Shown here one piece after another: positions 32,924 through 49,636 of a stretch of 64,000 bases of DNA. This DNA is from Escherichia phage A7_1: sequence record OP795442; one strand, written 5' to 3'. The translations under genes were made by a program, and so were the position numbers. The notes below the pieces were generated by a model. The model was given only the letters and a program-made list of their open reading frames with translations. It was not told where the DNA came from and searched no databases. How positions within the stretch are numbered: the stretch's first letter is position 1; each line of letters opens with the position of its first letter.

Positions 32924-32933
32924 GGAGGACAAC

Positions 32934-34169
32934 ATGATCCCTTTTCCAATTATTAATTTCGGTGGCGGTGTTCCACTACCTGTAGGCGTTACAATCAAGT
33001 ATGCAGTAAGTACCAGCACCGGAAATATTTTTATTCTGCTTACCAATGGGCATCTATATGTAACCGGATCTAATTATCTAAACGGGCTTGGTAAAACAGG
33101 GACCACAAATAATGCAACTTCGGGATGGTCACTTACTAACACAGGTGTTGAAGAAGTTTATGAGGTAGGAACAGAAAGTACACTGTACGGCGGTGTGTGG
33201 GTTAAGAAAAATAATAACCACTATGAATATATCTCTGCTGTAGTCTTTCCCGCTGTTGACACAACTCTCCAAAACAGTTGGAACGTCTTGCCTGAATCCG
33301 CATACATCGTTGGTGGTGTAAATATCTTATCTTCAGCAATACAAATAGCCAGATCATACGCGATCCAACCCGACGGCACTGTTTACAGACTGCTTCCAGA
33401 GGGGCCGCAAGTAGCTTGGCCTGAAAAAACAAAATACCTGTATTTTGCAAACTATAATGCTATTCGTGTCGAGGTGGATGGGACTTTAAAATACCGAGGC
33501 GACAATGGTGTAGATCAAGTGGCAGGCACTTCTGCCGGAACAACATTATCAACTTGGACAACCATCGGGGATTCTTCTGTAAGGTATATTAGGGCAAAAT
33601 GTGCTCGTGGTCAAGTGGCTAACACGAGTGGCGGTTCAGGTGCTCAATCTATTGTACTTGTTGTTGCACAGAGGGAAGATGGGTCATGGGATGCAGTTGG
33701 ATCGGCAGCAAGAGCAGGGATAAACTCAACCAACGTCCTCGGTCCTAATTTAGCACCTATGACAAGCATACCTGCGGGGGTTGAAGTTTATGTCACCAAC
33801 CAGATCAGCTATACAAACGCAAGTGTGAGCACAAGGGCAGCACTGCAAGTATTCATCTCTGACAGGGTTAATGGCATCTATCAATCAACGGGTGGACAAG
33901 GGGGATACACCTATTCTTTATTTAGGAATCTTCCTATAACCACCAACGCAACATCTTTCGAGAACATATCCGAAGATATTATAAACGATGGCGGTATCCT
34001 CAACATGACAGGTTCATTATCCGACACTTTCAAAGTGATTGTTAGTGGTAATGGTAATCTTTACTGGACAGGGAGAGGTTACACAGGGGCTATGTACCCT
34101 GCTGACTTTACGGCCTCTAATACGATAGCTCAGAAGTTTAACTTGGAAGGTATAGTTATTCCAGCATAA
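32934..34169 (+). CDS. hypothetical tail fiber-associated protein (last late gene)
   Basis: 411 aa, AGGAGG RBS, Gly/Thr/Asn-rich; last plus-strand gene before the convergent terminator. Confidence 0.55.
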   Translation: MIPFPIINFGGGVPLPVGVTIKYAVSTSTGNIFILLTNGHLYVTGSNYLNGLGKTGTTNNATSGWSLTNTGVEEVYEVGTESTLYGGVWVKKNNNHYEYISAVVFPAVDTTLQNSWNVLPESAYIVGGVNILSSAIQIARSYAIQPDGTVYRLLPEGPQVAWPEKTKYLYFANYNAIRVEVDGTLKYRGDNGVDQVAGTSAGTTLSTWTTIGDSSVRYIRAKCARGQVANTSGGSGAQSIVLVVAQREDGSWDAVGSAARAGINSTNVLGPNLAPMTSIPAGVEVYVTNQISYTNASVSTRAALQVFISDRVNGIYQSTGGQGGYTYSLFRNLPITTNATSFENISEDIINDGGILNMTGSLSDTFKVIVSGNGNLYWTGRGYTGAMYPADFTASNTIAQKFNLEGIVIPA

Positions 34170-34170
34170 A

Positions 34171-34206
34171 GAAAAGGCGCTCAAATGAGCGCCTTTATTT
34201 TTATCT
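34171..34206. terminator. bidirectional terminator between convergent modules
   Basis: AAAGGCGCTC-AAAT-GAGCGCCTTT hairpin flanked by an A-tract upstream and ATTTTTAT downstream; sits between plus-strand stop 34169 and minus-strand stop 34218. Confidence 0.75.
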
Positions 34207-34217
34207 AAATTTTACGA

Positions 34218-35393
34218 TCAAAACGGAATATCGTCGTCAAAATCCATATCATCTACAGACATATTTACATGTCCTTCAATATCAGGGGTAGGTGAATCTT
34301 CTGCTGACGGAGTTAACTGCGGTTCCGGCTCAGGTTTCTTTTCCTCTTGCTTAGGAGTTGAAGCACCGTTACGGATCTTATCTTCCAATTGACAGATGAA
34401 TCGGAAATTCTCTTCAGTCTTAGCAATAAAGGTTTCGATATTGTCACGACCCCAACGGGCAGAAAGAATGCCACACTGGCCTAAACGAGCACCGAAAGAG
34501 TAATCATCCATAGATTTAAACTCTTCACGCAGTTTTGCTTTGATCGAATCCATCGCTGCAAGAACTTGTTCTACGATCACACCCTGATTTGCAATAGTTT
34601 CATCAGGGAACATTGCATCGGTAATAGACAGTGCATTACCTAAACGAATAGGTAGATCATCTTTACCTTTACCTGAACGTGATCCTGTTCCAGTACTTGC
34701 ACCTTTTGGACCGTAAGCTTTAAAGCCTGTAACCGTACCATCATCTGAACGAACACCTGCAATACGACCACCTTCTGTAATCTGACCCGCCTGTTCATCA
34801 GTGAGGTTTACAGTAACTTCTGTGCCGTCTTCCAGCTTAACAACTACCTTATTGCCTTCAATAGATGTGATATCACCATAAATCTTCTTAGCTGCACCAC
34901 CAGACGGCTTTTGCTGCTGTTGGGAACCACTTGATTGCTGCTGTTTCTGACGAGGCTCACGAGCACCGGATGCGTCAGTAATTTTGATACGTGCTTTCTT
35001 ACCTTCTGTAGAAGAACCTTGACTACCATCTTCTTTGGTATAGGTCTTGATAACAACAGGTAAACGAATTTTCATACCCTCTTTAAGATCAGTGTAACCA
35101 CCTTCAGGATTTTTAATCTGGAACTGATTCTCATACTTCAGGTTTTTAACTTCACCCTCACCAAAAGAAATCCATGCTTGATCTTCACCTTCTTTAAGAA
35201 GAACCGCATAGCGGTGGGTATTGTTAATGCTTTTCTGCTGACCAGTATTCTTGTCTTTGAAGGTAGTCACTCGTGGGCTACCATCTTCATTAATACGTTT
35301 GATCATGATACGTTCAATCGTACCTGCTGCAATGTTTACTGTGGTATCGGAAACAGCATCGTATACAGCATTGATAACTTTAACTTCAGACAT
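34218..35393 (-). CDS. single-stranded DNA-binding protein (SSB-like, acidic C-terminal tail)
   Basis: 391 aa; Gly/Ser/Gln-rich linker; C-terminus ...DDMDFDDDIPF matches the bacterial SSB tail motif (DDDIPF). Confidence 0.6.
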   Translation of the reverse strand: MSEVKVINAVYDAVSDTTVNIAAGTIERIMIKRINEDGSPRVTTFKDKNTGQQKSINNTHRYAVLLKEGEDQAWISFGEGEVKNLKYENQFQIKNPEGGYTDLKEGMKIRLPVVIKTYTKEDGSQGSSTEGKKARIKITDASGAREPRQKQQQSSGSQQQQKPSGGAAKKIYGDITSIEGNKVVVKLEDGTEVTVNLTDEQAGQITEGGRIAGVRSDDGTVTGFKAYGPKGASTGTGSRSGKGKDDLPIRLGNALSITDAMFPDETIANQGVIVEQVLAAMDSIKAKLREEFKSMDDYSFGARLGQCGILSARWGRDNIETFIAKTEENFRFICQLEDKIRNGASTPKQEEKKPEPEPQLTPSAEDSPTPDIEGHVNMSVDDMDFDDDIPF

Positions 35394-35476
35394 TTAAATC
35401 TCCTTTAACTATTGAACACACCACTTAAGGCCGAGAAACTATATTACAACTAACTTATTTGAATTGCAAATAACTT

Positions 35477-35857
35477 TTAGAGATAAACTCGCTTAACTTT
35501 TTCATGAACATTATCAAACAAAGTGTTGATCATCTGCAAGTCTTTAATAAGTTCTTCCGTAAATTGTTCTTCTTTGTGAGCAAACACACGAGAACGGTCA
35601 ATGTTTACGGGATCTGCACTTTGGTCACCAGACAGGTCGAAAATGTCGATACCAATACGAGCACGACCTTTTTCAATCTTATTCTCATCATCAATACCAT
35701 AAACACTCATGATTTGCATTTCACGATCTTCTTCACTGTTTGTGTAAATGATCGTCGTATTCAAATTCTTAACACCATCGTAAATGTGAATGTTACGTGT
35801 CGCAGAGATAGGAATCCAATCAGCAACCAAATAATCTTTACCGTCGAAAATACTCAT
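35477..35857 (-). CDS. hypothetical protein
   Basis: 126 aa ORF in the minus-strand operon; no motif recognised. Confidence 0.5.
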   Translation of the reverse strand: MSIFDGKDYLVADWIPISATRNIHIYDGVKNLNTTIIYTNSEEDREMQIMSVYGIDDENKIEKGRARIGIDIFDLSGDQSADPVNIDRSRVFAHKEEQFTEELIKDLQMINTLFDNVHEKVKRVYL

Positions 35858-35911
35858 CTTCTTTCCTCTTTTGTTTAAGTGGGGCCATTATGCCCCACAC
35901 TTAACTTTCTG

Positions 35912-36499
35912 TCAAGGACGTTTCGGTGGACTAACGACACCTTTTTTAGATAAAGGTAATTCGTCTGCATCTTTTCCACGAAGAGATTCTAGCCACTCAT
36001 CTAAAGACAGGGGTACTTTACCATCACCTTTGGACCATACAGATAAGCAATACAGATCGTATGCAGATGGACCTCGATCACCTTTGTCACCATTCAACCC
36101 TTTTAAACTATCCAGCCAATCCTTCTCATTTAGTGGGATAGCGCCAGGATCTTCTTTACGAAGAACTCTCAGGTATGTTTCATAAGCAGACTCTCCACGG
36201 GGACCAATTGGACCAGGTAAACCTTGCGGTCCCTTTGCATACTCAAGACACTTAGAATCTAAATATGCAGACTTTGAACCATCATTAACCACTGAAACTT
36301 TATACAATGACCAAGCCAACAGAACTATCCAACAAGCAAACAATGCAAGCGGGTAAGGGATCATTGAAGTAAAGAATGACAGGGCTAAAATTACAACCTT
36401 GTTCTTGTGATCACGACGGAAAGCGATGATCACAGGGGCTAACCAGATAGCAAAGATAACCCACGCAGATAAGATAAACAACCAACTAATGTATTCCAT
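35912..36499 (-). CDS. membrane protein with collagen / fiber-like SAY...WL-SLKG modules
   Basis: 195 aa; two N-terminal hydrophobic helices; two copies of G(P/E)SAY...WL(D/E)SL(K/R)G plus short Gly-X-Y stretches, the same module as in the 7003-10803 fiber protein. Confidence 0.6.
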   Translation of the reverse strand: MEYISWLFILSAWVIFAIWLAPVIIAFRRDHKNKVVILALSFFTSMIPYPLALFACWIVLLAWSLYKVSVVNDGSKSAYLDSKCLEYAKGPQGLPGPIGPRGESAYETYLRVLRKEDPGAIPLNEKDWLDSLKGLNGDKGDRGPSAYDLYCLSVWSKGDGKVPLSLDEWLESLRGKDADELPLSKKGVVSPPKRP

Positions 36500-36687
36500 T
36501 AAGCCTCCTCAGTATCGTCTTTAAAGTAATCTAACATCCAACTCTCTACAGGTTTCGCATAGTAACCTGTTCGCCCTTTCTTTTGGAACTCCATAACAAT
36601 TTCATTTGCAATACTTTTTGTGATTGCGATCCCGATTAGTGCTCCACCAGGACCCATTACTGCGTGTGAACTAAAAACATTACTCAT
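36499..36687 (-). CDS. hypothetical small protein
   Basis: 62 aa; stop overlaps the start of the downstream gene. Confidence 0.4.
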   Translation of the reverse strand: MSNVFSSHAVMGPGGALIGIAITKSIANEIVMEFQKKGRTGYYAKPVESWMLDYFKDDTEEA

Positions 36688-36751
36688 ATTTAACCCCCTT
36701 TATTCTCTCCGCAACCGACAAGAAGAAGTATACATAAAATGATTAACCTCT

Positions 36752-36904
36752 TCAATAGCTACCTCCAAAATATTTTGTAGCCTCTACTGCAAATATTGTC
36801 CCAAGTATGAACCATGTCGCACTTAGCACGTTGAAAGGTAAAAACCTCGATCCTGCAAGAGAAACCATAATAAAAAATGTTACAAAAATCTCTGGAGAAA
36901 TCAT
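36752..36904 (-). CDS. small membrane protein (50 aa, not in ORF track)
   Basis: ATG overlaps the upstream stop (ATGA); translation MISPEIFVTFFIMVSLAGSRFLPFNVLSATWFILGTIFAVEATKYFGGSY is strongly hydrophobic. Confidence 0.3.
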   Translation of the reverse strand: MISPEIFVTFFIMVSLAGSRFLPFNVLSATWFILGTIFAVEATKYFGGSY

Positions 36905-37305
36905 CATTGTTTGATAGCCCCTTTGGCAATCATCTCGTCAAGTTCATCTTCCGCACGACACATGATTTGGTAGATAGTTTCTGGATTGTTTAAGAATTCT
37001 GTGTACTTCTTGATACGACAAACTAAACGTGCACGAACTTTACGCTCACGGGCCACATGATTAAAGTAATGTCCCTTTTGTCTGTAGACCCAAGCATAAT
37101 ATACAGTTTTTGCTCTCTGGCGATCAGAACCTAAACGTTCAGCTAATTCCGTGTACGGGTCATTGTTGGTTGGACCAAACAAAAATATTTCTGCAAAACT
37201 TTCCTTCATGATACGAGCTTCTTCATCCGTAACTCGCGGACATTCTTCAGAACCGTAACGTGGGGTTTTAGTGGCATTTGGCTTCTTAGGGTATACTTTA
37301 CGCAT
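36904..37305 (-). CDS. hypothetical basic protein
   Basis: 133 aa with GAGGAG RBS; Arg/Lys-rich, possible nucleic-acid binding. Confidence 0.5.
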   Translation of the reverse strand: MRKVYPKKPNATKTPRYGSEECPRVTDEEARIMKESFAEIFLFGPTNNDPYTELAERLGSDRQRAKTVYYAWVYRQKGHYFNHVARERKVRARLVCRIKKYTEFLNNPETIYQIMCRAEDELDEMIAKGAIKQ

Positions 37306-37372
37306 TTCATCACTCCTCTAATTAAAACTCTTACTCCCGATGTGAGGAGCCTTTCGGCCCCTCCCTTAAATA

Positions 37373-37981
37373 TCAATCACAACTGCTTGAAGAACTGCTA
37401 CTGCTACTATCCGAAGAATAACTATCGTAAGATGATGAGCTATCATACGAACTTGATCGACTTGAAGAACAGTAAGAACTTGAACTACTTGTACGATCTT
37501 CACTGGATGACATTACGGCAGCATACGTTGCCACACCACCTAAAGCTGCCACCTGAGGATCAACCTGGCTAGTTCCATATCCGTTTGGAGAGTCGCTCAT
37601 TTTACGTGGCGCTGCCCGACGTGCCTGATCAATATATTGTCGCTTTGCCTTCGGTGGTAATTTCTTACCTTGAGCATAAGACGGCAGTTCAACACCCTTC
37701 AGTTGTTCATCCAAAGGTTTCGGCGGCGTAGCCTGTGATTTTGGTCGTTCAACAGAGATATCAACAACCTTCATCGTCTTATCTTTGATGTTTAACCCAA
37801 CCAATACCTCATTTTCTTTTAATGGTTCTTCCAGATCGCGTGTTTCAACTGGACCGAATTTAACGCTTTCAGTTTCCTGACGCTGTTCGGCCTGCTTTGC
37901 AATATACTTGTCGATCGCCGCAGTTTCTACTTCCAGCGGAATAAACAGTGATTTTACCCAAGCAACAAACTTCTTGATCAT
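37373..37981 (-). CDS. hypothetical protein with Ser-rich C-terminal tail
   Basis: 202 aa; last about 50 residues are almost entirely Ser with Tyr/Asp/Cys (...SSSSSYCSSSRSSSYDSSSSYDSYSSDSSSSSSSSSCD). Confidence 0.5.
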   Translation of the reverse strand: MIKKFVAWVKSLFIPLEVETAAIDKYIAKQAEQRQETESVKFGPVETRDLEEPLKENEVLVGLNIKDKTMKVVDISVERPKSQATPPKPLDEQLKGVELPSYAQGKKLPPKAKRQYIDQARRAAPRKMSDSPNGYGTSQVDPQVAALGGVATYAAVMSSSEDRTSSSSSYCSSSRSSSYDSSSSYDSYSSDSSSSSSSSSCD

Positions 37982-38202
37982 ACTCTTTCTCCTTTTTCAT
38001 CAATAACAATCAGTGGCTCAATAACTAAAAGACGTTGCTTCATAAGACTTTTTATAGTCTCATCAATGTCAGACAGAAGAATATCTTTTTGACCTTCTAT
38101 CCAATTGAGTGCTGCCTTTTCTGAAACAAATGCAATACCTTCTTGACCAATATCCCATTCACAGAATACTTTATACACCATCATCTTCTCCCTTGTCAAC
38201 AT
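37978..38202 (-). CDS. hypothetical small protein
   Basis: 74 aa; start uncertain (internal Met residues at 7/8 would reduce overlap with the upstream gene). Confidence 0.4.
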   Translation of the reverse strand: MLTREKMMVYKVFCEWDIGQEGIAFVSEKAALNWIEGQKDILLSDIDETIKSLMKQRLLVIEPLIVIDEKGERV

Positions 38203-38488
38203 TATTCGGGTTAAGTTTCTTTTCTGCGGCCTTCAAAATAATATCCAGCTTTTCAATTTCCTTATGTAAAGGCTCAGATAATAACTTCTCACCAAAAAGC
38301 CAGAATTTCTTCATGCCTTTCTTAACGCACTTTCCCATAAAGCCCGCGAGGTCTTCTAGTCGCCAAGCAATAAAACTAAATATTGCAGCTAAAAGGTGAA
38401 TCAAGGCCAGCAGTAAACGATGCGGGTTTAGTACAGCAAGGCACAGGATCATAAAGATTATTTTAGTAAAACCCCAAATAATTTTCAT
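38171..38488 (-). CDS. small membrane protein
   Basis: 105 aa with two hydrophobic helices. Confidence 0.45.
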   Translation of the reverse strand: MKIIWGFTKIIFMILCLAVLNPHRLLLALIHLLAAIFSFIAWRLEDLAGFMGKCVKKGMKKFWLFGEKLLSEPLHKEIEKLDIILKAAEKKLNPNNVDKGEDDGV

Positions 38489-38871
38489 TCGTAATTGATC
38501 TCCACTTTAACAATTTTACCAGTTTTATCATTGAATACTTCAATATCGTAGTATTCAATAACACCTTCATCATCAAAAGAACTTTTTTGTTTGCAAGGTG
38601 ATACCCAAAAACCGTGGATTACTGCCTCCTCCAGTCCGTCGGTATGTGATACAACACTCAATGTCGGGTAAGGAACCATAATAGGTTTTACCTCACCACA
38701 ACCACACGTACAGCAAAATACTTCATCTTCTTCCAGTTGGTACAGTCGCTTTTCTGGAACAAAAGTCAGATGCGCCAAAGGATATTTAGAAACGATGGCA
38801 TTAATATAAGGCTTTCCTGCCAAGCTGTCAATAAAATCATTAAATTCTTTTCTATTTTTTGATAATCTCAT
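38485..38871 (-). CDS. hypothetical Cys-cluster protein
   Basis: 128 aa containing CCTCGCG and a later Cys/His, possible metal-binding; ATGA overlaps on both sides. Confidence 0.5.
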   Translation of the reverse strand: MRLSKNRKEFNDFIDSLAGKPYINAIVSKYPLAHLTFVPEKRLYQLEEDEVFCCTCGCGEVKPIMVPYPTLSVVSHTDGLEEAVIHGFWVSPCKQKSSFDDEGVIEYYDIEVFNDKTGKIVKVEINYE

Positions 38872-39104
38872 CGAGTACCTCCAAAAATATTTAAAGCTTT
38901 AGAATAATCAATGTGACCTGGAACAGTGTGGGCCTCTTGTACAAGGCATTGCCGACAAATACGTGACACAACTGTTGTCTTGATCTCTTCTGTATCGTAG
39001 AAGCGAGACATTACCTTTGTAACTTGATTACATTGAGTAATAACAAAATCGTGTTTACAACTTGGTTTGTTTTCTTCAGTTTCTTTCTTTTTAAAAGGCC
39101 ACAT
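38868..39104 (-). CDS. hypothetical zinc-ribbon-like protein
   Basis: 78 aa with two Cys pairs (C..H...C and CRQC). Confidence 0.45.
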   Translation of the reverse strand: MWPFKKKETEENKPSCKHDFVITQCNQVTKVMSRFYDTEEIKTTVVSRICRQCLVQEAHTVPGHIDYSKALNIFGGTR

Positions 39105-39112
39105 GGTGACTC

Positions 39113-39295
39113 CTATTCTTCAACTATTTCGTATTCATCTTTCAAGAGCATAAATTGATAGCCCTTGCCCTTATTCGCAATAATAGTACCAGACGCGCTT
39201 TCTTTTGTCACGAAAAGAATTGAATCTTTTTGGACACCGTAATACTTAAGTTGCTCAAGCAGTTTGGTCTTTGATTCTAAGATTTTGACTTTCAT
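39113..39295 (-). CDS. hypothetical small protein
   Basis: 60 aa ORF in the coupled operon. Confidence 0.35.
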   Translation of the reverse strand: MKVKILESKTKLLEQLKYYGVQKDSILFVTKESASGTIIANKGKGYQFMLLKDEYEIVEE

Positions 39296-39552
39296 CAGAT
39301 ATCAATTACTACGATTTCAAGCATTGAATTTTCAACAGCTTCCTTAAGCTCATCGTATACAATAATAGACCAATCATTGTTAAGATTACCTTTGATCAGT
39401 TTGGCTATCTGTTCTAACGAGGTCACAAAAGGTGTGTCACTCTCGTTATTGGAAAGACTTAACTTTGTATGGATAAAGCCATCATCGTCGGCAGTCTGCC
39501 AAAATGAAACAAATTCACCACTGACTTTATGTTTTGCTGAGTAAAATTTCAT
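39295..39552 (-). CDS. hypothetical protein
   Basis: 85 aa; stop adjacent to the next start. Confidence 0.45.
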   Translation of the reverse strand: MKFYSAKHKVSGEFVSFWQTADDDGFIHTKLSLSNNESDTPFVTSLEQIAKLIKGNLNNDWSIIVYDELKEAVENSMLEIVVIDI

Positions 39553-39573
39553 TTAATTATCCTCTCTGCCAGT

Positions 39574-39840
39574 TTATAACTTTTCTTTACCTAAAGTAAG
39601 ACTAATTTCGAAAGTTTTTGTTATAACTTTGTCGTCTTTGTCGAAGAAATCGAATTGGACATAACTCTCGGTCGAACTGACAACCAGACCTACAGAGACA
39701 GTCCCTTCTGGTACGAGAGCCTTATATTCTTCTTTTAGCACAACGTCGTAAAAATACAACGCTCCACAATAAACTTCATCCCAACCATCAAAAGATTCGA
39801 TGAAAGCTTTTTCAATACCAACTAAAGTATTTTCTGACAT
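39574..39840 (-). CDS. hypothetical protein
   Basis: 88 aa ORF; no motif recognised. Confidence 0.45.
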   Translation of the reverse strand: MSENTLVGIEKAFIESFDGWDEVYCGALYFYDVVLKEEYKALVPEGTVSVGLVVSSTESYVQFDFFDKDDKVITKTFEISLTLGKEKL

Positions 39841-39863
39841 TATATTATCCTCTTCGTTTCAAG

Positions 39864-40130
39864 TTAGATATAGTCTACACCAGCTTGTTCCAACAAGTCA
39901 AGTCTCAATTTAAGTTCTTTTTCACGATAATCGGAAACAAGTTTATCCTTTTTCTTTTCTTCTTCCTCAAACTGTTCGAGAGGAAGAATACGAATAATGT
40001 GTTCTGCCTTCATGTAGGACGTTGAACCAATAAGCTGAACATTACCATTTGGTAACAATCGGCCCTTGATCACCCGATAACGAGGGAACAAGTCATATTT
40101 AACAATCGCGGTAACTGCTAGATTACTCAT
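39864..40130 (-). CDS. hypothetical protein
   Basis: 88 aa; Glu/Lys-rich helical C-terminus. Confidence 0.45.
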   Translation of the reverse strand: MSNLAVTAIVKYDLFPRYRVIKGRLLPNGNVQLIGSTSYMKAEHIIRILPLEQFEEEEKKKDKLVSDYREKELKLRLDLLEQAGVDYI

Positions 40131-40500
40131 GTGTATTCTCCATATCGCGAATTCGATCTTCTACCCAACCACGACGATAAATGTTGAGGTAAGATTTACC
40201 TTTTGAACCATGATGGGCATATTCGTCAAAATCAAAATCGAAAGGTGTCTCGGTGTTAAGACCTGCATCAAAGAATTGATTCTTCATTTCGAATTGCACT
40301 TTCATATCTGGATCATTTTTACCTAAAAATGAGGACAAATTAAAACAAAGGCCAGCACCTCGGTAAAAAGCCCCATCTTTTGGTGCACCGATATCTAACC
40401 ATTTTTTATATTCTCGGTAGAAATTCAGAAGTTGCGGACTGCTTTTCATTTTGTTCTCCTCATTTGTTTTGATAGGACTACTATAACATAGTCCTATCAA
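40123..40500 (-). CDS. hypothetical protein (paralog of 50204-50500)
   Basis: Shares WLD.GAP...GLC and FxDAGLN.EFPFD motifs with ORF 50204-50500. Likely true start is ATG 40449 after AGGAGAA (MKSSPQ...); a palindrome lies at 40471-40498. Confidence 0.5.
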   Translation of the reverse strand: MIGLCYSSPIKTNEENKMKSSPQLLNFYREYKKWLDIGAPKDGAFYRGAGLCFNLSSFLGKNDPDMKVQFEMKNQFFDAGLNTETPFDFDFDEYAHHGSKGKSYLNIYRRGWVEDRIRDMENTHE

Positions 40501-40582
40501 CTTGTATACTATTTAATTAAAGATTTTATGAATACTTGGTAGGACCCTTCTTTAAATACTCATCTGGATAATAAAAATCATC

Positions 40583-40960
40583 CTATACTCCAAATGTGGA
40601 TTTGATTTCAGCAATAACCTCATGCACATTGTTTTCGTTTACTTCAAATGTGTAGGACGTTGGTTTAAGGAACGTCTGAGGTGAAACATTAACAAAGAAT
40701 TCAAATTCATCATCAAAAATTTCAAAGTATTTTCCCGGTGTTGATTCTTGACTTTTGAAAACAGTACCATCTTCCATAGTAACAGAAGAAACAGATTTTT
40801 CACCAAGGGTGTATGTTTTTAACTCATCAACAACGAAACTAGGACCGTGACGACGTAGTATTTCAACCATAGTTCGGTTGGCCCCGCAAATACCTGTCCG
40901 CTTAATAAATAACTCTTCACACCGAGGATTGAGAATATAAGTTTTTCCTACTTGCATCAT
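40583..40960 (-). CDS. tandem paralog family member 3
   Basis: 125 aa; shares MxxGKTYxLN, HGPxFVV, EDGxxG and C-terminal IKSTFxx with the two adjacent ORFs. Confidence 0.55.
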   Translation of the reverse strand: MMQVGKTYILNPRCEELFIKRTGICGANRTMVEILRRHGPSFVVDELKTYTLGEKSVSSVTMEDGTVFKSQESTPGKYFEIFDDEFEFFVNVSPQTFLKPTSYTFEVNENNVHEVIAEIKSTFGV

Positions 40961-40970
40961 AACAACCCCC

Positions 40971-41330
40971 TTAGGATAAGTTAAATGTGGATTTGATCAG
41001 GTCGATAGTTTCTTGTGCGTTTTGCTCAGATACTGACACCTGGATAATTTTAAGATCACTGACCTCTTCGAAGTATTTGAACTCAGATTCACGAAGTTCA
41101 AAGTACATTGCCCCACAGCCCACACTGAATGAATCACACCCTACAGCACCATCTTCTGTTGTGATGTTATTAACATACTCATCACCTTCGATCATACTCA
41201 TGTTATTAACAATAAATCGCGGCCCGTGCTCATCCAGAAAAGAAACAATCTCGTGATTGTAACTTGGGTCAGCCTTAATAAATTCTTCCACGAATTTTGG
41301 ATTAAGTTTATAAGTTTTACCTACTTCCAT
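40971..41330 (-). CDS. tandem paralog family member 2
   Basis: 119 aa; same conserved blocks as 40583-40960 and 41342-41716. Confidence 0.55.
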   Translation of the reverse strand: MEVGKTYKLNPKFVEEFIKADPSYNHEIVSFLDEHGPRFIVNNMSMIEGDEYVNNITTEDGAVGCDSFSVGCGAMYFELRESEFKYFEEVSDLKIIQVSVSEQNAQETIDLIKSTFNLS

Positions 41331-41341
41331 CTTTGTTCTCC

Positions 41342-41716
41342 TTACGCCAGGTTAAAGGTAGCTTTAATCAAATCTAAAGTTTCTTGTGCATTACTACGAG
41401 AGACGGCAACCTGAATAATAACAGGGTCTTCATCTTCCCCGACTTCTTTGAAGAAGGGAAATTCACTCTCTGCAAGTTCAAAGTATACACACTTGTTACC
41501 TTCGCAGTCGTGAAAAACGTCACTACCTAAAGTACCATCTTCAAATATGACATTGTTAACATATGCAACATTATCATAGAAGTGGGTGGTGTTGACAACA
41601 AATTTAGGACCGTGCTTATAAATAAGGTCAACCAATTCTTGATTGTAGCTAGGGTCCATATTGATAAAAGCTTTTTCTAAGTCTTTATTAAGAATGTAAG
41701 TTTTTCCGATTTCCAT
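41342..41716 (-). CDS. tandem paralog family member 1
   Basis: 124 aa; same conserved blocks (MEIGKTYILN...HGPKFVV...EDGTLG...LIKATFNLA). Confidence 0.55.
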   Translation of the reverse strand: MEIGKTYILNKDLEKAFINMDPSYNQELVDLIYKHGPKFVVNTTHFYDNVAYVNNVIFEDGTLGSDVFHDCEGNKCVYFELAESEFPFFKEVGEDEDPVIIQVAVSRSNAQETLDLIKATFNLA

Positions 41717-41736
41717 CTTTGCTCTCCTCTTATTTG

Positions 41737-41913
41737 TTGATGAATTGGCTAAGGATTTCGATAAGATCTTTAGCTTGTTTCTTGTCGAGAATCACGCTGT
41801 CTCCTGCATGGCAGATTTCAATAACATCCTCTTCTGCATGATATTCAACTTCCTTTGCATGAAAATCTTCAGTTTCTTTAATCACTTTTACAATGCGCTG
41901 TGTCATCTTGTTT
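41737..41913 (-). CDS. small hypothetical protein (58 aa, not in ORF track)
   Basis: Minus-strand ORF MTQRIVKVIKETEDFHAKEVEYHAEEDVIEICHAGDSVILDKKQAKDLIEILSQFINK with upstream GGGAGAG; fills an otherwise empty gap. Confidence 0.3.
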
Positions 41914-42016
41914 CTCTCCCTTTCTCTCTTTCATCGTTTAGTTTCGATAAGGTGATAGTACATCAACTAACCAATTATTATTTAGCAATTAGTGCTAAAC
42001 GCCATAATCAATCTTA

Positions 42017-42259
42017 TTAATTTTCATTTAATACCCTTAGTGCTCTCTTTTCACAAATATCCCTGAGCCTGATTACCTCTCCTATTAGATAGGAAATAGC
42101 CTTAGCTTGTACTGGTTCATCGTAATCCCCAACCGTCCCAAACACTTCATCGAGAGATAGGAAGAACTCTGAAGAGTAAATACTGTTTTGATCTTCTATA
42201 GCACGGTCTGCATTAAATTTAATATCTTCCAGGGCGCTATTACTGATATTCATAGTCAA
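42017..42259 (-). CDS. hypothetical protein
   Basis: 80 aa; start overlaps the upstream stop (ATGA). Confidence 0.45.
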   Translation of the reverse strand: MTMNISNSALEDIKFNADRAIEDQNSIYSSEFFLSLDEVFGTVGDYDEPVQAKAISYLIGEVIRLRDICEKRALRVLNEN

Positions 42260-42681
42260 ACTCCATAATCTATCTTAACAAGCTTCCCTTTGTAGTATCC
42301 AAAGTTTTTAGGAAATGCGTCGTACTCGAAGAAATCTCGGTCAAGGGTTCTATCTTTATCGTTATCAATCTCATCATAAAGTTTTTGTAGATCAGCTGTA
42401 AATAATTCCTTATTCTCTACTGATTTAGCCTTGTGCATCACAACCATAAGTCCGAATCTGTTTGAGTAAGCTATTGGGCATAGATGCGGGTTATTATACC
42501 CTTTCCACTGACCCTCTGTCATATTGCTGAGCATTCCCTGAACAAACGCCTTCCATGAATTAAATCTTGGGAACTTAATCGCATACTTGTTTGTGATTAT
42601 GACAATTCTCGTCCCACCACTCCTGTTTATCTGCATCTTAATATCTCCAGACCTCGTTACTTGTTTCGATGAGGGCATCAT
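42256..42681 (-). CDS. hypothetical protein with weak kinase-like motifs
   Basis: 141 aa; contains KYAIKFP (reminiscent of a kinase VAIK beta3 lysine) and C-terminal KIDYG (DFG-like). Too short for a full kinase; call is tentative. Confidence 0.45.
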   Translation of the reverse strand: MMPSSKQVTRSGDIKMQINRSGGTRIVIITNKYAIKFPRFNSWKAFVQGMLSNMTEGQWKGYNNPHLCPIAYSNRFGLMVVMHKAKSVENKELFTADLQKLYDEIDNDKDRTLDRDFFEYDAFPKNFGYYKGKLVKIDYGV

Positions 42682-42718
42682 ACCAGAATGAATCTGTGTG
42701 TCAACACTTTTTATTCAG

Positions 42719-42748
42719 ATAATAAAAAACCACCCCGAAGGGTGGTTT
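42719..42748 (-). terminator. rho-independent terminator (minus strand)
   Basis: Minus strand reads AACCACC-CTTCGG-GGTGGTT followed by TTTTTTATT; just downstream of the stop at 42752. Confidence 0.7.
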
Positions 42749-42751
42749 AAA

Positions 42752-43276
42752 TTAATTGCACAGGATGGTCTTTATAGCTGCATCAACTTCTGGACCTTCC
42801 TTACCGATAAAAGAAGCAAGACCCTTAAGTTTACAGGCTTCATACACTGCCCTAGCTTCTTCTTTTGTCCTGTATCTCCCAATATGTTTTTTGTTGATCT
42901 TGACCCTCCATTTCTGGCGATCTTCTTCCCAAGATATGCCTTTTCTTTTTGTCCAGTAACGATTAAGGTCACCGGAGATAAACAGGCAGGTTTCTGGTGA
43001 ATATACCTTACCGCCTTTTAAATCTTTATCAAGGCACTTCCCCTTCCAATCCTTTGTTTGCATCCACGCTTTGAAATTGCTAAACCTGAGCCACTCTTCA
43101 CAGACGGTAGTCCCCTCATAAGAGGGGTCCCTTGACAAAGCGCCCTGATCGTAACAACGTTGAAGCATACTCATCCATCGCATGTAGAATGGGCACATCT
43201 TTTCGTCTGGCCTAACATTGTAACCTGCGTCGTTTATACCCTTTCCGTAAACCATAAAAAACTCCTTATAAATCAA
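42752..43276 (-). CDS. AP2-domain DNA-binding protein (homing endonuclease-associated family)
   Basis: 174 aa; C-terminal KGISWEEDRQKWRVKINKKHIGRYRTKEEARAVYE fits the AP2 pattern (G.SW....KW...I....IG.Y....A..AY); directly downstream of the DNA polymerase. Confidence 0.5.
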   Translation of the reverse strand: MIYKEFFMVYGKGINDAGYNVRPDEKMCPFYMRWMSMLQRCYDQGALSRDPSYEGTTVCEEWLRFSNFKAWMQTKDWKGKCLDKDLKGGKVYSPETCLFISGDLNRYWTKRKGISWEEDRQKWRVKINKKHIGRYRTKEEARAVYEACKLKGLASFIGKEGPEVDAAIKTILCN

Positions 43277-43282
43277 TAACTA

Positions 43283-45937
43283 CTAATGGCACGCCCCCCA
43301 GTTCATCCCTGTGAGGTATTCTCCAGTTATCATCACTGGTGATTTCATCATCTTAGCTGCTTGTTCGACACAACGAACAACCATCTCTCCTACAGGGCAG
43401 TATGTAATAGTGAAGATACCATTTTCATCAGGATCACACTTAAACTTCCCTTCTTTCACACAATGACCATCTAAGACCATCTTCTTAGCCAAGCAAGCTT
43501 CTACAAATTTTTTCGCGTCAGCTTCGTTGTCAAAGGTCCAGGTCTTCTTGAACTTGTGTGGCACTTCAAGCTGGTATTCATCATGATAGTAAATGATACG
43601 GCGAACACCTTCATCATACCAACCTTTCTTAACCAACTGCCAGTGCAGGAGGATACCTACCAAGTCAAACAGTGCAGCACCACCATTCTGCTGATAAGCA
43701 TTAAGCAATGAGTGTTTGGAACGAGTGTAGATCTTACGTCCATCAAGACCGTAGATGAATCGCTTACCGTTAGCTTCCCAAAACTTCTCTAGTGCTTCTT
43801 TACGACCTTTCAAGCCGATGTTGCTATCCCAGAATGCGTCGATTACTGCCTGGGCCTTCTCAAGAGTGATCCCCAGCATTGATGCAATCTTCGCTGCCTG
43901 TGCCCCGTACATAATTCCGTATGTCACACCTTTACCTTCACCACGAGAAACCTTCTTCCCTGCCGCTTTGGTATACGCTTCTGCGTTTCGGGAGTGAGCA
44001 TCTCCAGATTCCATGATACGAAGATAAGCGCCACCATCGAAATCATACGCGCCCCATGCCGCGATCATACCTTCCAAGTTTGAACCGTCGATACCTACCT
44101 GATATTTACCCTCGGAGGCTCTAAACAGTTCACGCATCTCTTTACCGAGAAGAACTTTCTCATCCGGCTTAGGTACGTTTGCTACGATCGTATGCTTACG
44201 ACGACCTGTGTTAGTTATTCCACTATAACGGGCCGGAAGTTTACCGTCAACCCGTAGACGTGGATGGTTAAGCCATCCGGTATCAACCTTCTCTTCTTTC
44301 AGTGGGTCAAGAACAGATCGTCGGTTACGTAAAGACAGCCATTTAACAATCTGTTTAGCCATTTCACCATCTACTCGCTCAAGGTTAGGGCAAAGACCCT
44401 GCTGATCCTTAAGTTGTGGAGATGTTGGTAATGCACGGGCTTTCTTCCTGAAGAACTTATACATCTTCTCTTTATCTTGCCACTGCTTACCACTGATACC
44501 TAAACTTTTCAGAATCAGATCGCGATATTCAGTCTGGTCAAGATCATCAATATATTGACGAACAATGATATCGACTTCGTTATCGGGACGTTGTTTCTTA
44601 AACTGGTCCTTCGTCGCATCTTTAGTTCGCCACAATGTTGGGACCCAACCAGCATCACGAATAAGGAATTTTTTAACGTCATCCTGATTACCAATACGCA
44701 TCGGGATCATAATGTCCGGCATCTTTTGTTCTTTGATATCCATCAAAGCACGAGCCATATCTTCCGGCGGCAAAGGAACAAGCCCTTGCTGCTTAACGTT
44801 TTGTGCACGGATAAAATCACCCATTTTGGATTCATCTTCTACACCGTGTTCAACACAATACTTGATCGCGGCGGCAGTAAGAGATCCGTCAGCCTTAAAC
44901 GGCTTACTTGGTGCACCTTTAAACTCTAATGCTTCCCAATTGATATTATAACCTAACTTCTCTAACCATTTCCAACCTGTACCGGAAAGAGATCCATCAC
45001 CCTTGAAAGGCTTAGATGGGAATGTCGGTTGTGCTGATTTCGACATTTCTTTCTTCGGTAACTTAGGTTCAACCTCTAACTCAATGTCTGTCATCATCTT
45101 ATCGATACGATCACGGAGCTTGAGTGCTTTTTCTTCATCAAATGAAACACCCTGAATCTCTTGCTCAATCATCAGGTAGTCGGTCAGCATACCTCGACGC
45201 AGGGCATTCTTCCAGTTGATCATTTTAAACTTCTTCTGATCTTTGTCTGTTTCATCCTTAAACATGAAGCGTTTATCATCTGGCATGGATTCACAAGAGA
45301 TCTCTTTCATCAGAGCATCCCACACCATTTCGTTGATAATTACGTCTTCAATAATACGATCGCAATATTTCCAAAGTGGAAGGCCACGCCAATCTTCAAT
45401 CGCCACTTTCTGGTTGGCTACTCGCATACCCCAAGCTTCAAGCCCGTGAGGGCCTACAGGCTTCATTTTACCTGTGACTGGGTTCTTTACCATCTCGGGA
45501 CAACCACGAGGCAGAGGGCGATCTGGATACAATGTACGGGACATTGAAAGTGTATCGAAGATGTTTACTTGTTTACCATTAATCGTACCCATGCAACCAG
45601 GGTCTGCAAACATATCGTAAGTTGTTCCAAGCATCTTCTTAAACAACTGGAGGTCGTAGCCGAAGATGTTGTGGATAGCAATTGCTTTAGGCTCTGTGAC
45701 AAACCACTCGTTTAATTCCTCAATGGTCCGAATCTTAAAGTTTTTACCTTTAGATTGGATAAATTTAACAGCTTGATCGTAACCTTCCCGCTGGGGATCA
45801 AGAAAGATGTTCCAGTTATCTTTTTTATACTCTTTAAACAAGACGCAGTGAATCAGATCAACCTCTGTCAATAGACCATTCGCTTCCGCATCTCCAATAA
45901 ATAAGCCTTTCATTTTTTCTCCTTCTTCAAGCTCCAA
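43283..45937 (-). CDS. DNA polymerase, family A (T7 gp5 / Pol I-like) with 3'-5' exonuclease
   Basis: 884 aa; exo I motif FIGDAEANG (D.E) at N-terminus; motif B RGEGKGVTYGIMYGAQAAK and motif C YYHDEYQ. Confidence 0.9.
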   Translation of the reverse strand: MELEEGEKMKGLFIGDAEANGLLTEVDLIHCVLFKEYKKDNWNIFLDPQREGYDQAVKFIQSKGKNFKIRTIEELNEWFVTEPKAIAIHNIFGYDLQLFKKMLGTTYDMFADPGCMGTINGKQVNIFDTLSMSRTLYPDRPLPRGCPEMVKNPVTGKMKPVGPHGLEAWGMRVANQKVAIEDWRGLPLWKYCDRIIEDVIINEMVWDALMKEISCESMPDDKRFMFKDETDKDQKKFKMINWKNALRRGMLTDYLMIEQEIQGVSFDEEKALKLRDRIDKMMTDIELEVEPKLPKKEMSKSAQPTFPSKPFKGDGSLSGTGWKWLEKLGYNINWEALEFKGAPSKPFKADGSLTAAAIKYCVEHGVEDESKMGDFIRAQNVKQQGLVPLPPEDMARALMDIKEQKMPDIMIPMRIGNQDDVKKFLIRDAGWVPTLWRTKDATKDQFKKQRPDNEVDIIVRQYIDDLDQTEYRDLILKSLGISGKQWQDKEKMYKFFRKKARALPTSPQLKDQQGLCPNLERVDGEMAKQIVKWLSLRNRRSVLDPLKEEKVDTGWLNHPRLRVDGKLPARYSGITNTGRRKHTIVANVPKPDEKVLLGKEMRELFRASEGKYQVGIDGSNLEGMIAAWGAYDFDGGAYLRIMESGDAHSRNAEAYTKAAGKKVSRGEGKGVTYGIMYGAQAAKIASMLGITLEKAQAVIDAFWDSNIGLKGRKEALEKFWEANGKRFIYGLDGRKIYTRSKHSLLNAYQQNGGAALFDLVGILLHWQLVKKGWYDEGVRRIIYYHDEYQLEVPHKFKKTWTFDNEADAKKFVEACLAKKMVLDGHCVKEGKFKCDPDENGIFTITYCPVGEMVVRCVEQAAKMMKSPVMITGEYLTGMNWGACH

Positions 45938-46078
45938 CTAGACTAAAACAAAGCCCAGCCGGAGGTATGACCCTTCGGCTAGGTTATCAAAAGTGTCGGT
46001 ATCCTTCATCAATAAAATAAAGCATCACTAACAGGGCGAATACCCCACATAAGAAGATCAAGCCCAATAAGGTGGGCA

Positions 46079-46354
46079 TCAGTCTTCTATTACCTCAAAT
46101 TCACCACTAAAAGCTACGATAGTTTCACCGTAGCCCATGTTCAATCGGGCAGTTGTAGGTTTGCCATTCCTAGATAGATAGTACACCCTCGCTTCGTAAA
46201 TGTCACCAACTTTTACACCGTAAGCCTGTAGGTCTTTGTTATTGATATCTTTATTTTCAGCATTGATTATTCGAACACTGCTGATCTCTGAGTATACAGA
46301 ATTATCTTTCATCAGTATTTTTCCTCTGGACGGAAAACTCCACGGCAAGCCCAC
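46079..46354 (-). CDS. hypothetical protein
   Basis: 91 aa ORF; overlaps the upstream gene by about 40 nt, so the start may be at an internal Met. Confidence 0.4.
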   Translation of the reverse strand: MGLPWSFPSRGKILMKDNSVYSEISSVRIINAENKDINNKDLQAYGVKVGDIYEARVYYLSRNGKPTTARLNMGYGETIVAFSGEFEVIED

Positions 46355-46596
46355 ATACTTGCTTCTTTGAGGCGATCTTTAGCCTTAGATAAGCAATCAG
46401 ATGCAAAAAGCACGGAATCTAGATCCCCTTCGGGAATCGAAGAGTCATTAGCCAGTCGATTATATTCCTCAATAATCTCGTCTTCTAATGCTTTTAAAAT
46501 AAGACCTAAACGAATTTCAGCATCTTTAATGGCATTCACCTTACCGATTTTTTCATCGGTGTGTGGTTTGTAGCCCTTAATGTCATCAATAGCCAT
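46312..46596 (-). CDS. hypothetical protein
   Basis: 94 aa helical ORF; ATGA overlap with the upstream gene. Confidence 0.45.
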   Translation of the reverse strand: MAIDDIKGYKPHTDEKIGKVNAIKDAEIRLGLILKALEDEIIEEYNRLANDSSIPEGDLDSVLFASDCLSKAKDRLKEASMWACRGVFRPEEKY

Positions 46597-47090
46597 TACC
46601 AGTCCTCCTCTGTTTGTTCATACTCTGAAGGGGTGATGAAGTAATTCTGACCCCGCTTGCACTGGTTGAAAGTCCCAACATACCAAGTACCGATATCCAT
46701 GTTGATGAAAGTTTCTTCTTGAACAAAGATCAGATCAGCAAGATTATTGTCTGATCGTTGGGTCGCTAACAAAATATGCTCAAAATCTGCCAACGTCATG
46801 TTATAAGAGAAACCATCTTCGTCCTCCATAACCGCAACAACAGAACTGCGCCCCTGAGTGAATTGACGAAACTGTAAACGTAAATGACGATGCTCATGTT
46901 CATTCGTCTTTACCTTTTTCCGATTTTCAAAGTATTCTTCGGAATAATACGGATGCTTTAACTTTAGCTTTTCAATCTCTTCTAAAGAAAGAGCGTCCTT
47001 GTCCCAACCAGTGAACCATTTACCGTTATGATCAAATACCGCAGGGTATTTACGCTTACTTAAATCTTTAAACATCATAATCCTCCCCAT
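46596..47090 (-). CDS. hypothetical protein
   Basis: 164 aa; His-rich segment (EHEHRH). Confidence 0.5.
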   Translation of the reverse strand: MGRIMMFKDLSKRKYPAVFDHNGKWFTGWDKDALSLEEIEKLKLKHPYYSEEYFENRKKVKTNEHEHRHLRLQFRQFTQGRSSVVAVMEDEDGFSYNMTLADFEHILLATQRSDNNLADLIFVQEETFINMDIGTWYVGTFNQCKRGQNYFITPSEYEQTEEDW

Positions 47091-47400
47091 AAATATCTTG
47101 AATTTTTGAACTTAGGTATTCAGGATCGCTACCATCATACCAGACTTCTACGAAAACCTTTTGGGAACCTTTAACGATCTTTGCACCGACTCTTTCAATA
47201 CCTTTAAAGAAAGATTGCAAGATGTAATCATCTAACACGTTTACTCCATAAGCATCGTGGAGGGATTTTTCATTGTGAACATACACAACCATCTTACCAT
47301 CATAGGTGATTTGGATATGGGGATCATCTTCCCAAGTAATAGCCGGAGAATCCGGCTCAAGCTTTGCAATAACACCAATAGTCAATCGGTTGTCACTCAC
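47068..47400 (-). CDS. hypothetical protein
   Basis: 110 aa; start overlaps the stop of the GHKL-like gene (ATGA). Confidence 0.5.
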   Translation of the reverse strand: MSDNRLTIGVIAKLEPDSPAITWEDDPHIQITYDGKMVVYVHNEKSLHDAYGVNVLDDYILQSFFKGIERVGAKIVKGSQKVFVEVWYDGSDPEYLSSKIQDIYGEDYDV

Positions 47401-48614
47401 TCTTTACCCCCTGCGATGCGTAACATTTTGATAGTTTTCTCCAGTTCTTTACGAGGTTTAGCAACTAAACGACGTTCGTGTCGCTTCAGGAAGCCTTCTA
47501 AGAACTCTAGCGGTTTAAAGGATAACACTTCCTGTACTGATTCGTCAACAGCATACTCTTTCTGGACCATACGATAAACCGGATTTTTTACAGTTACAGG
47601 AGTATAACCCTTCGTGATCGCCATCTGAGTAACAACACGTTTCTTACCGTCGGTCCACGAATCGTCAATAGGGAAAGAATCTTTTCCGTATTTTTCAGCG
47701 AACAACTTAACTGCTGTCTTTGTCAGGTCGTCCTGATCTTCTTGTGACCGACTTTGACCCCAATAATAGCCACCAGAGGTCTTAGCACGACGTTCTGAGA
47801 ACAAAGCAAGGTCATCGTACTGCTCAAGAGCTAAACGCGCCAGAAGCTCGATATCGTCGCTTTCTGACAGTAGTCGGTTTGCTTCATACTTAACCTCAAA
47901 AGTATTTGCACTATCACGATCACGGTCAAGAGTAAAGGCTTCCGGCTTAAAATCATAATCGAATTTAAAATTACCTGGAACACGAGTAACGAACAGTCCA
48001 TTTACAAACAGGTTGCAGTCGCCACCTGTGATAGAGCCATCCTCTTCTTCATTTTGGTATTCGTCCGCAGCATTGTATAGCTTAGTATAAGCTTTACCGC
48101 GGTCATTCTGAATAACGACTGTACGTTCAGTAGTTGGTGCATAGTTATCCATAATTTCCGACATAGCGTACTGAGGGATGTTTTCAATGATAACGGTCAC
48201 AGTATTTGAATCACGACCCGATAAGGCGTTTTCATGGATATCCACCGCCAAAATGTTCTGTTCGTATGTGGTATCGTAAACCATATTTGGAATCCAAAGA
48301 TCATTACCATTTTCGATAACGATATCTGCGCCTTCACGAACAAGCACCAGAAGACCCACTTTCAGACCTTCACCAAACTTACCGATCTTACTGTCATCAT
48401 CACGTTTGGTTGAAACACCCATCAAAAGGCCGGAAACAGGAACAACACCGCCACGAGAGATGATTGTGATCTTACCTTGATTACTATCATCATTCCCAAA
48501 ATAAATATTGAAATCTTCTGTATCGATAGCATTTTGCATGAGTTCACGAGCACCTTGCCACCATGACCAGTGGCTGACGTAATTTTCAGTGATGCTCAAT
48601 TTAATCTGTTTCAT
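47397..48614 (-). CDS. GHKL-family (Hsp90 / MutL / MORC-like) ATPase-domain protein
   Basis: 405 aa; N-box-like ELMQNAIDT (consensus EL..NA.DA) followed by Gly-rich boxes (RGG; GKFGEGLKVG), the Bergerat ATP-binding fold; C-terminal 200 aa unassigned. Confidence 0.6.
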   Translation of the reverse strand: MKQIKLSITENYVSHWSWWQGARELMQNAIDTEDFNIYFGNDDSNQGKITIISRGGVVPVSGLLMGVSTKRDDDSKIGKFGEGLKVGLLVLVREGADIVIENGNDLWIPNMVYDTTYEQNILAVDIHENALSGRDSNTVTVIIENIPQYAMSEIMDNYAPTTERTVVIQNDRGKAYTKLYNAADEYQNEEEDGSITGGDCNLFVNGLFVTRVPGNFKFDYDFKPEAFTLDRDRDSANTFEVKYEANRLLSESDDIELLARLALEQYDDLALFSERRAKTSGGYYWGQSRSQEDQDDLTKTAVKLFAEKYGKDSFPIDDSWTDGKKRVVTQMAITKGYTPVTVKNPVYRMVQKEYAVDESVQEVLSFKPLEFLEGFLKRHERRLVAKPRKELEKTIKMLRIAGGKE

Positions 48615-48626
48615 TTATTTGTCCTC

Positions 48627-49343: not shown

Positions 49344-49636
49344 ATAGTGGTTAATTTACAAATACACCAGAAAATCCCGATCAGTGTAGCCAGAGTAATA
49401 ACACAAGTCAATACTATAGGTAAGAATATCGTCATAATCACTGCAAAAACTGAAATACCTATGCTTGCAATAAGATCCGGCACGAAATAGTGAAATGGAT
49501 CTCTTGCCTTTTTAATGTTGTCCCATGTTATTACTACGGAGCTAAGGACGAGCCAGAATAAAAAGTACAAAATGCAAGGAAATAAAGTCATGTGTGACTT
49601 AACCATATCAAACCACATGTTGTAGAATTCAATCAT
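49328..49636 (-). CDS. small membrane protein
   Basis: 102 aa, three hydrophobic segments. Confidence 0.45.
   Translation of the reverse strand: MIEFYNMWFDMVKSHMTLFPCILYFLFWLVLSSVVITWDNIKKARDPFHYFVPDLIASIGISVFAVIMTIFLPIVLTCVITLATLIGIFWCICKLTTIWMLR

Follow-up and report, generated by a model that had tools for sequence, protein, structure and literature searches.

The best-described relative of the genes considered here is frd.2 of phage T4, an early gene whose amber mutant plates normally (PMC12152347). The usual assumption about the early-gene family to which frd.2 belongs is that its members contribute to host takeover (PMC12152347). Among genes of unknown function, frd.2 alone was scored as 'Fit' in the T4 CRISPRi-ART screen, a marginal call that reflects a weak fitness effect (0.83, p=0.027, versus 3.29, p=1e-5, for gene 32). 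The supplementary table of that screen assigns T4 frd.2 to PHROG 622, and its product (Frd.2, NP_049852) belongs to Pfam family PF03197 (FRD2). A profile hidden Markov model (HMM) of the family dismissed T4 frd.3 and frd.1 as members, so that T4 is a single-copy phage. Other T4-like phages carry two diverged, head-to-tail paralogs that are already annotated, as in Dhakavirus SP18 and JS10 (frd.2a and frd.2b) and in Mosigvirus FP43 (a 128-amino-acid (aa) and a 120-aa protein). Here we describe a three-copy array of this family in Escherichia phage A7_1 (sequence record OP795442), in a stretch of 64,000 nucleotides (nt) that we refer to as the window. Three consecutive minus-strand open reading frames (ORFs) exactly fill positions 40583-41716 in the ORF list for 39000-43500: copy A (41342..41716, 124 aa), copy B (40971..41330, 119 aa) and copy C (40583..40960, 125 aa). 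The A-B and B-C spacers measure 11 and 10 nt, with a Shine-Dalgarno sequence in each. In contrast to the T4-like pairs, this array holds three copies, draws on two subtypes or more and belongs to another subfamily of phages.

Membership in the Frd.2 family

The original prediction had recognized three consecutive minus-strand paralogs of about 120 aa, and both the ORF list and BLASTP bear this out. With compositional adjustment, A and B are 52% identical (E=3e-42; about 54% in our identity table), A and C 35% (E=2e-19) and B and C 37% (E=3e-20). These values indicate real homology, far beyond chance or composition, and dispose of the concern that the shared blocks might be compositional artefacts. 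The three-way alignment contains 35 invariant columns, which include the blocks originally listed as common to all three copies. Two of those blocks, EDG..G and the C-terminal ET(L/I)DLIK, fit A and B only, however; the corresponding segments of C read EDGTVF and EVIAEIKSTFGV. A six-frame search of the 64-kb window with the family HMM detected no fourth copy.

All three ORFs match PF03197 (A, 67.9 bits, E=1.3e-18; B, 74.3 bits, E=1.3e-20; C, 73.0 bits, E=3.5e-20; curated gathering threshold, 29 bits), and all align end to end with PHROG 622 (residues 1-123; E=8e-22 for copy A). Protein A71_154 of Escherichia phage A7_1 and copy A show 100% identity. In addition, each copy is a stand-alone protein of the family's usual size that carries the positions conserved in a 34-sequence alignment, namely N-terminal GK.Y, N25, HG..F, YFE, EF..F, N104 and F116. 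Judged by sequence, A, B and C are new members of the known, functionally uncharacterised T4 Frd.2 early-gene family and not orphans, and the Pfam and PHROG memberships rule out a novel family. With T4 Frd.2 they share full-length homology, length, acidity, a predicted two-domain architecture and the character of a small early-type accessory gene. They differ from it in sequence (30-38% identity), in number (three copies here, one in T4) and in place, as the T4 gene lies between gene 32 and frd and the present genes follow the DNA polymerase A gene of an rV5-like phage. The canonical position beside gene 32 and frd.1/frd, found in T4, FP43 and the contig encoding the T4-like protein P0007, is thus not occupied here, although this position is contextual and does not define the family.

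The family itself is small. An exhaustive profile search of 1.84e9 proteins returned 42 representatives at 50% identity, about 33 of them stand-alone proteins of 112-138 aa, and a word-indexed homolog search returned 10 close relatives. Large multi-repeat matches (P0030, P0039 and others) were dismissed as homologs, being cadherin-repeat proteins with spurious similarity in D/E/G-rich sequence. Searching with copy C by tblastn placed the family in 267 phage records, nearly all of them T4-like genomes of 160-190 kb, together with five records of the genus Septuagintavirus.

An AlphaFold2 model of copy B, built on the 34-sequence family alignment, is confident (predicted local distance difference test score, pLDDT, 91.2; predicted template-modelling score, pTM, 0.73), and structure prediction, one of the checks originally proposed, accordingly yielded a two-domain protein. 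The predicted fold is an N-terminal FeoA/SH3-like beta-barrel with two inserted helices, joined to a small conserved C-terminal alpha/beta domain. It agrees with published predictions and has the architecture of the GoF/MotB.1/Frd.2 superfamily, a bent antiparallel barrel of SH3/LSm topology with a separate C-terminal domain. FeoA is the best neighbour of the model in the PDB (score 5.2), in agreement with Kim et al. 2025 (PMC12152347). Further neighbours are MIB repeats (4.5-5.1), CarD (4.7), IdeR/DtxR SH3-like domains (3.6-4.6), UvrD/PcrA Tudor domains (4.1-4.5) and EF-P/KOW barrels (3.8-4.0); the top 60 include no Hfq or Sm protein, and a close match to either was thus not found among them. 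A Foldseek comparison of the same model with viral models (BFVD) gave 45 matches at E<1e-3, all from T4-like phages, and its matches include GoF (E=2.9e-4) and T4 MotB.1 (E=1.2e-3). At the level of predicted models, this result independently reproduces the superfamily described by Kim et al. 2025 (PMC12152347). A profile of the three copies found chance matches only among the sequences of solved structures (best E=0.047).

The FRD2 family is uniformly acidic, with a median isoelectric point (pI) of 4.45 and a median net charge of -11; the values for copy A are 4.36 and -13. The exception is the N-terminal domain of copy C, which is basic (pI 8.7), unlike those of A and B. A pair of Cys residues in a loop of A and B was considered as a metal site and dismissed, as it is not conserved among the orthologs of A. 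Two other proteins of some T4-like phages, P0044 (254 aa) and P0048 (225 aa), resemble two tandem-fused FRD2-type N-terminal barrels with another kind of tail at the C-terminus. Their PF03197 scores are weak, and matching models of 225 aa are present in BFVD. Such fused proteins hint that FRD2 barrels may work in pairs.

Each copy is maintained. Nei-Gojobori estimates of the ratio of nonsynonymous to synonymous substitution rates (dN/dS) among orthologs are 0.11-0.31 for copy A, 0.06-0.31 for copy B and 0-0.08 for copy C in same-allele comparisons; synonymous divergence between the paralogs is saturated. The retention of orthologs together with dN/dS of 0-0.31 shows that A, B and C are real, maintained genes, and purifying selection on every copy indicates that each is conserved for its own function, which implies three distinct useful activities. 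The dN/dS comparison originally proposed as a check gave no sign of diversifying selection among the orthologs of the available close relatives. Nor do the relatives carry a single copy with a known housekeeping role: related phages keep three copies, and the single copy of T4 has no known role.

Origin of the array and its 3' cassette

The closest records to A7_1 are phages A5-4, A73, W70, UPEC06 and LTH01, which have genomes of ~140 kb and belong to the genus Septuagintavirus of the subfamily Vequintavirinae. The array is kept in these five phages and in one metagenomic contig (L011), just downstream of a family-A DNA polymerase gene. In a neighbour-joining tree with 100 bootstraps, A and B form a clade (90/100), and the three copies together are monophyletic in only 0-1 of 100 replicates. 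Copy C is 46-50% identical to the 120-aa paralog of FP43 and to P0007, which is encoded in a T4-like gp59-gp32-FRD2-frd.1 contig, versus 36-40% to A and B. The nearest outside relative of A and B (40-43%) is part of a cluster that bears the annotation 'frd.2b' in SP18, a T4-like Shigella phage (Dhakavirus). The tandem triplication originally proposed is therefore half right. The genes are true tandem paralogs, but a single triplication in situ is contradicted by the tree, and "triplication" is imprecise for what the sequences indicate to be a lineage-specific pair, A and B, next to a more distant paralog, C.

The third position is not constant among close relatives. In LTH01 and L011 it is occupied by a different, 129-aa subtype, which is 60% identical to the 128-aa protein of FP43 and has a C-terminus almost identical to that of T4 Frd.2; in the tree, copy C of LTH01 groups with the 128-aa type of FP43 (83/100). 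By subtype, then, C of the window resembles the 120-aa type of Mosigvirus, C of LTH01 the 128-aa type, and A and B come nearest to frd.2b. A nucleotide scan of the window against LTH01 gives 90-100% identity over A and B and into C for ~15 codons; identity then collapses over the remainder of C and recovers at ~40520, so that the boundaries of the replacement lie at ~40910 and ~40520. In LTH01, copy C and the element downstream of it are colinear with the 128-aa gene of FP43 and the element that follows it (BLASTN, 76.3% identity across 464 nt, E=4e-88). For the window, copy C and its downstream element show patchily ~77% nucleotide identity to the P0007 gene and its 3' element (BLASTN).

This downstream element, at which identity to LTH01 recovers, is an 85-bp T4-type early promoter/stem-loop cassette on the minus strand (40443..40527), and it forms the right-hand boundary of the copy-C replacement. 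Its order is an AT-rich leader, a -35 box TATACA, N17, a TG-extended -10 box TATAGT, a Shine-Dalgarno sequence GAGGAG and the ATG of the next gene. A hairpin with a 13-bp stem (40469-40500; dG -18.4 kcal/mol, z -5.4) overlaps the spacer and the -10 box and lacks a U-run, and the pattern can be written as GTATACAA-hairpin-AAAAC. It may serve to terminate transcripts reading through from upstream, as a site of recombination, or as a structure in the DNA itself. A second hairpin, right after the stop codon of copy C, is weak (-7 kcal/mol, z 0.06). The cassette is the only part of the region that matches T4-like genomes in megablast; each of those genomes has 7-11 sites, at 84-89% nucleotide identity, as against one in the window and one in A73, whose complete genome was scanned. 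FP43, LTH01 and Avunavirus Av-05 have the identical core. In FP43 two neighbouring cassettes are seen (L002 2921-3007 and 3364-3434), and the one with this core lies directly upstream of its 120-aa FRD2 paralog. The second has the same layout and a hairpin at the same position (-17.0 kcal/mol) with a wholly different stem sequence, which suggests that the structure itself is selected. In Av-05, the cassette (L010 1501-1564) adjoins a homolog of a T4-type internal head protein (PHROG 7673).

T4-like phages have promoter-early stem-loop (PeSL) cassettes (PMC2839356), for which a part in the modular shuffling of these phages has been proposed (PMC4122927), and the present cassette matches most of their features. 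It shares the AT-rich leader, the Shine-Dalgarno sequence and the ATG, a comparable promoter (TATACA-N17-TATAGT versus the T-even PeSL consensus TTTACW-N17-TAYWAT), a strong stem-loop and a placement exactly at the border of a gene replacement between close relatives. It differs in that its stem-loop overlaps the spacer and -10 box, whereas the stem-loop of PeSL cassettes, a terminator, lies just upstream of the promoter, and in being single-copy in this genome as opposed to 7-11 copies per T4-like genome. Outside T4-like phages, we have seen it in A7_1-type phages and in Av-05. Between copy C and the cassette, A5-4 carries an extra 80-aa gene (PHROG 16188; L001 5009-5251) that is missing from the window and the other relatives, and which by its position marks another insertion or deletion at the cassette border.

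How the array came about can be read in several ways. The most economical reading of these comparisons is horizontal acquisition from T4-like coliphages, combined with one local duplication giving A and B and a cassette-type replacement of C. Acquisition is favoured because C and its cassette are colinear with T4-like loci, because all other known members of the family are from T4-like phages, and because a search around the polymerase gene of three further genera of Vequintavirinae detected none. Were one ancestral gene instead duplicated twice within the lineage, its copies diverging at different rates, the head-to-tail order, the near-identical start-to-start distances (373 and 386 nt), the conserved ribosome-binding-site and N-terminal DNA (repeat family D1) and the motifs common to all three copies would follow naturally. 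Such a literal triplication nevertheless appears very unlikely, given the near-complete absence of A+B+C monophyly, the closer identity of C to T4-like proteins than to A and B, and the colinearity of C and its 3' cassette with T4-like loci, with C swapped for another T4-like subtype in LTH01 and L011. We regard as highly improbable the further view that Vequintavirinae and T4-like phages inherited the family from a common ancestor, with subsequent loss from most Vequintavirinae. The array does occupy the same place in all known Septuagintavirus genomes, as vertical inheritance would predict. However, in one representative each of Certrevirus, Seunavirus and Vequintavirus, no ORF of the family was found up to 7 kb from the polymerase gene, the Certrevirus polymerase being 91% identical. 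In addition, 76% nucleotide identity over 464 nt to a Mosigvirus locus far exceeds expectation for families with no other nucleotide similarity, and the adjoining cassette is of a T4-type that T4-like genomes carry in many copies and this phage in only one. Under the reading we prefer, horizontal acquisition, the array would have been assembled by transfer from T4-like coliphages into the Septuagintavirus lineage, A and B would stem from a duplication specific to that lineage, and C would travel as a gene-plus-3'-cassette module that has been exchanged on one or more occasions, with recombination taking place between the 5' end of the gene, which is conserved across the family, and the PeSL-like cassette.

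Genomic setting

The transcription unit containing the three genes is headed by a terminator hairpin (42748-42727, minus strand). By promoter scan and by sequence, a near-consensus sigma-70 promoter, TTGACA-N16-TG-TATGAT (42704-42677, minus strand), follows it directly. In UPEC06, the stop codon of the polymerase gene is followed by the same hairpin, TTGACA-N17-TAAGAT, a ribosome-binding site and copy A. The array thus lies in a sigma-70-driven unit and is presumably transcribed early by host RNA polymerase, a timing suggested by its position at or near the head of such a unit after the polymerase gene. Together with the accessory nature of the region and the T4 early-gene family to which the copies belong, this promoter lends some support to the earlier view of the locus as early-region accessory genes that may interact with the host. 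That the genes behave as accessory genes is borne out by horizontal transfer, by the allele replacement at copy C and by the insertions and deletions that distinguish close relatives.

Three small minus-strand genes (41730..42681), placed between the promoter and copy A, encode a 141/126-aa protein (PHROG 4301), an 80-aa protein and a 58-aa protein. This insert is found only in the A7_1 window and A5-4. UPEC06, LTH01 and A73 lack it, the triplet there directly following the polymerase gene, and identity of the window to LTH01 and UPEC06 is lost upstream of ~41720. The 141-aa ORF probably starts at the internal Met16 (42636), since the -10 box of the promoter overlaps its first ATG. The 58-aa protein has a weak, sub-threshold similarity (E=0.0016) to the C-terminal domain of T4 y05I-like putative transcription factors (PF24448). 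On the other side of the array, the cassette drives a 108-aa minus-strand gene (40123..40449, PHROG 2510), for which a T4-like origin was considered and dismissed; its tblastn relatives occur in phAPEC8-like, Rhizobium, Erwinia and other phages, not in T4-like ones.

The DNA polymerase gene (43283..45937, minus strand) is intact in the window, where it encodes 884 aa, and in UPEC06. In A5-4, A73, LTH01 and L011 an ORF of ~163-172 aa has been inserted and breaks it into two or three ORFs. The window has instead, immediately downstream of the polymerase gene, a free-standing HNH endonuclease gene (42752..43276, minus strand; PHROG 953, E=5e-58), and the split polymerase together with this gene suggests homing-endonuclease traffic at the locus. 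Just upstream of the polymerase gene and ~5 kb from the array, a 94-aa minus-strand ORF (46312..46596) encodes an Acb2/Tad1 hairpin domain (PF24729, E=1.4e-16, 60.9 bits against a cut-off of 27 bits), and the same gene was called in L011. PF24729 is a recognised family of anti-CBASS and anti-Thoeris sponges, the T4 member of which is Vs.4.

At a larger scale, the two arms of the window diverge. Positions 1..34000 carry large plus-strand ORFs, presumably structural genes, at 44% G+C, and positions 34000..64000 carry replication and small accessory genes on the minus strand at 40%; close to 34 kb the GC skew changes sign. No tRNA gene was detected in the window by ARAGORN. The G+C content of A, B and C is 36-38% versus 42% for the window, a marker of foreign origin that we discarded as not discriminating, given that the neighbouring small genes are equally AT-rich.

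Possible functions and significance

An SH3/Tudor-like barrel, strong negative charge, small size and promoter context, taken together, point to partner binding, and the three proteins are most likely early accessory factors that bind a host or phage partner. After early synthesis by host RNA polymerase, the SH3-like barrel of A, B and C would bind a macromolecular partner of the host or the phage, most plausibly a protein. Such binding would adjust gene expression or the takeover of the host at an early stage of infection, and the paralogs would differ in their partner or partner variant. The account as a whole, comprising a horizontally acquired Frd.2-family array with A and B duplicated, C swapped by cassette and all three acting as early partner-binding factors, strikes us as reasonably probable.

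Two other functions deserve consideration. Small, very acidic proteins (pI ~4.4) from a likely early accessory region might act as decoys, sponges or DNA mimics against E. coli immunity, with paralogs covering different systems or variants. Such an anti-defence role would suit genes that are multi-copy, undergo allele replacement and are exchanged horizontally between unrelated coliphage families; it would also suit the nearby Acb2/Tad1-family gene and the dispensability of T4 frd.2 on laboratory strains (PMC12152347). It seems unlikely to us, however. The copies resemble no known anti-defence family in Pfam, have no NCBIfam match and reach only chance level in PADLOC (E=0.006), so that the anti-defence part of the original prediction found no counterpart among known anti-defence or defence models. 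In T4-like phages the gene, which has been described as highly conserved (PMC11879866), holds a fixed position beside gene 32 and frd, unlike anti-defence genes, which are typically patchy; the weak fitness effect was seen in a laboratory host with few defence systems; and purifying selection on the orthologs gives no sign of an arms race. A role as LSm/Hfq-like RNA chaperones that alter the stability or translation of phage or host mRNA, as proposed for the GoF/MotB.1/Frd.2 superfamily, appears a little more doubtful still. An LSm-like barrel was predicted and GoF(D25Y) shown to stabilise an mRNA in PMC12152347, the copy B model matches GoF and MotB.1 by Foldseek, and the basic N-terminal domain of copy C would be compatible with such a role. 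On the other hand, the acidic charge of the family argues against RNA-related activity, without excluding it.

A bolder variant would see the FRD2 array as a modular arsenal of host-interaction factors, perhaps for counter-defence or host takeover and each fitted to a different target in E. coli, traded between two unrelated families of virulent coliphages, Straboviridae and Vequintavirinae, as gene-plus-promoter/stem-loop cassettes. We offer this only tentatively, as possible but on the whole doubtful. If true, it would extend PeSL-mediated shuffling from within T4-like phages to gene flow between families, and the identical cassette beside the internal-head-protein gene of Avunavirus Av-05 would be a second instance of such flow.

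Returning to partner-binding early factors as the preferred reading, we consider the array of modest interest, as a curiosity of evolution, and do not regard it as a system of a new kind. It is mildly novel in placing the family outside T4-like phages, in uniting three copies of at least two subtypes, and in providing nucleotide-level evidence that a gene plus its cassette moved between phage families. In the text of the genus description covered by a keyword search (PMC11370258), there is no mention of FRD2, of the paralogs or of gene transfer from T4-like phages. That an unrelated lineage imported the family and keeps three diverged copies under purifying selection indicates that the benefit of the family in E. 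coli is portable and does not depend on the T4 genome. Since they offer three natural variants, the third in two alleles, Septuagintavirus phages could thus be a second system in which to study the family genetically, and the adjoining T4-type cassette illustrates in concrete form how small accessory genes may pass from one phage family to another when both infect the same host.

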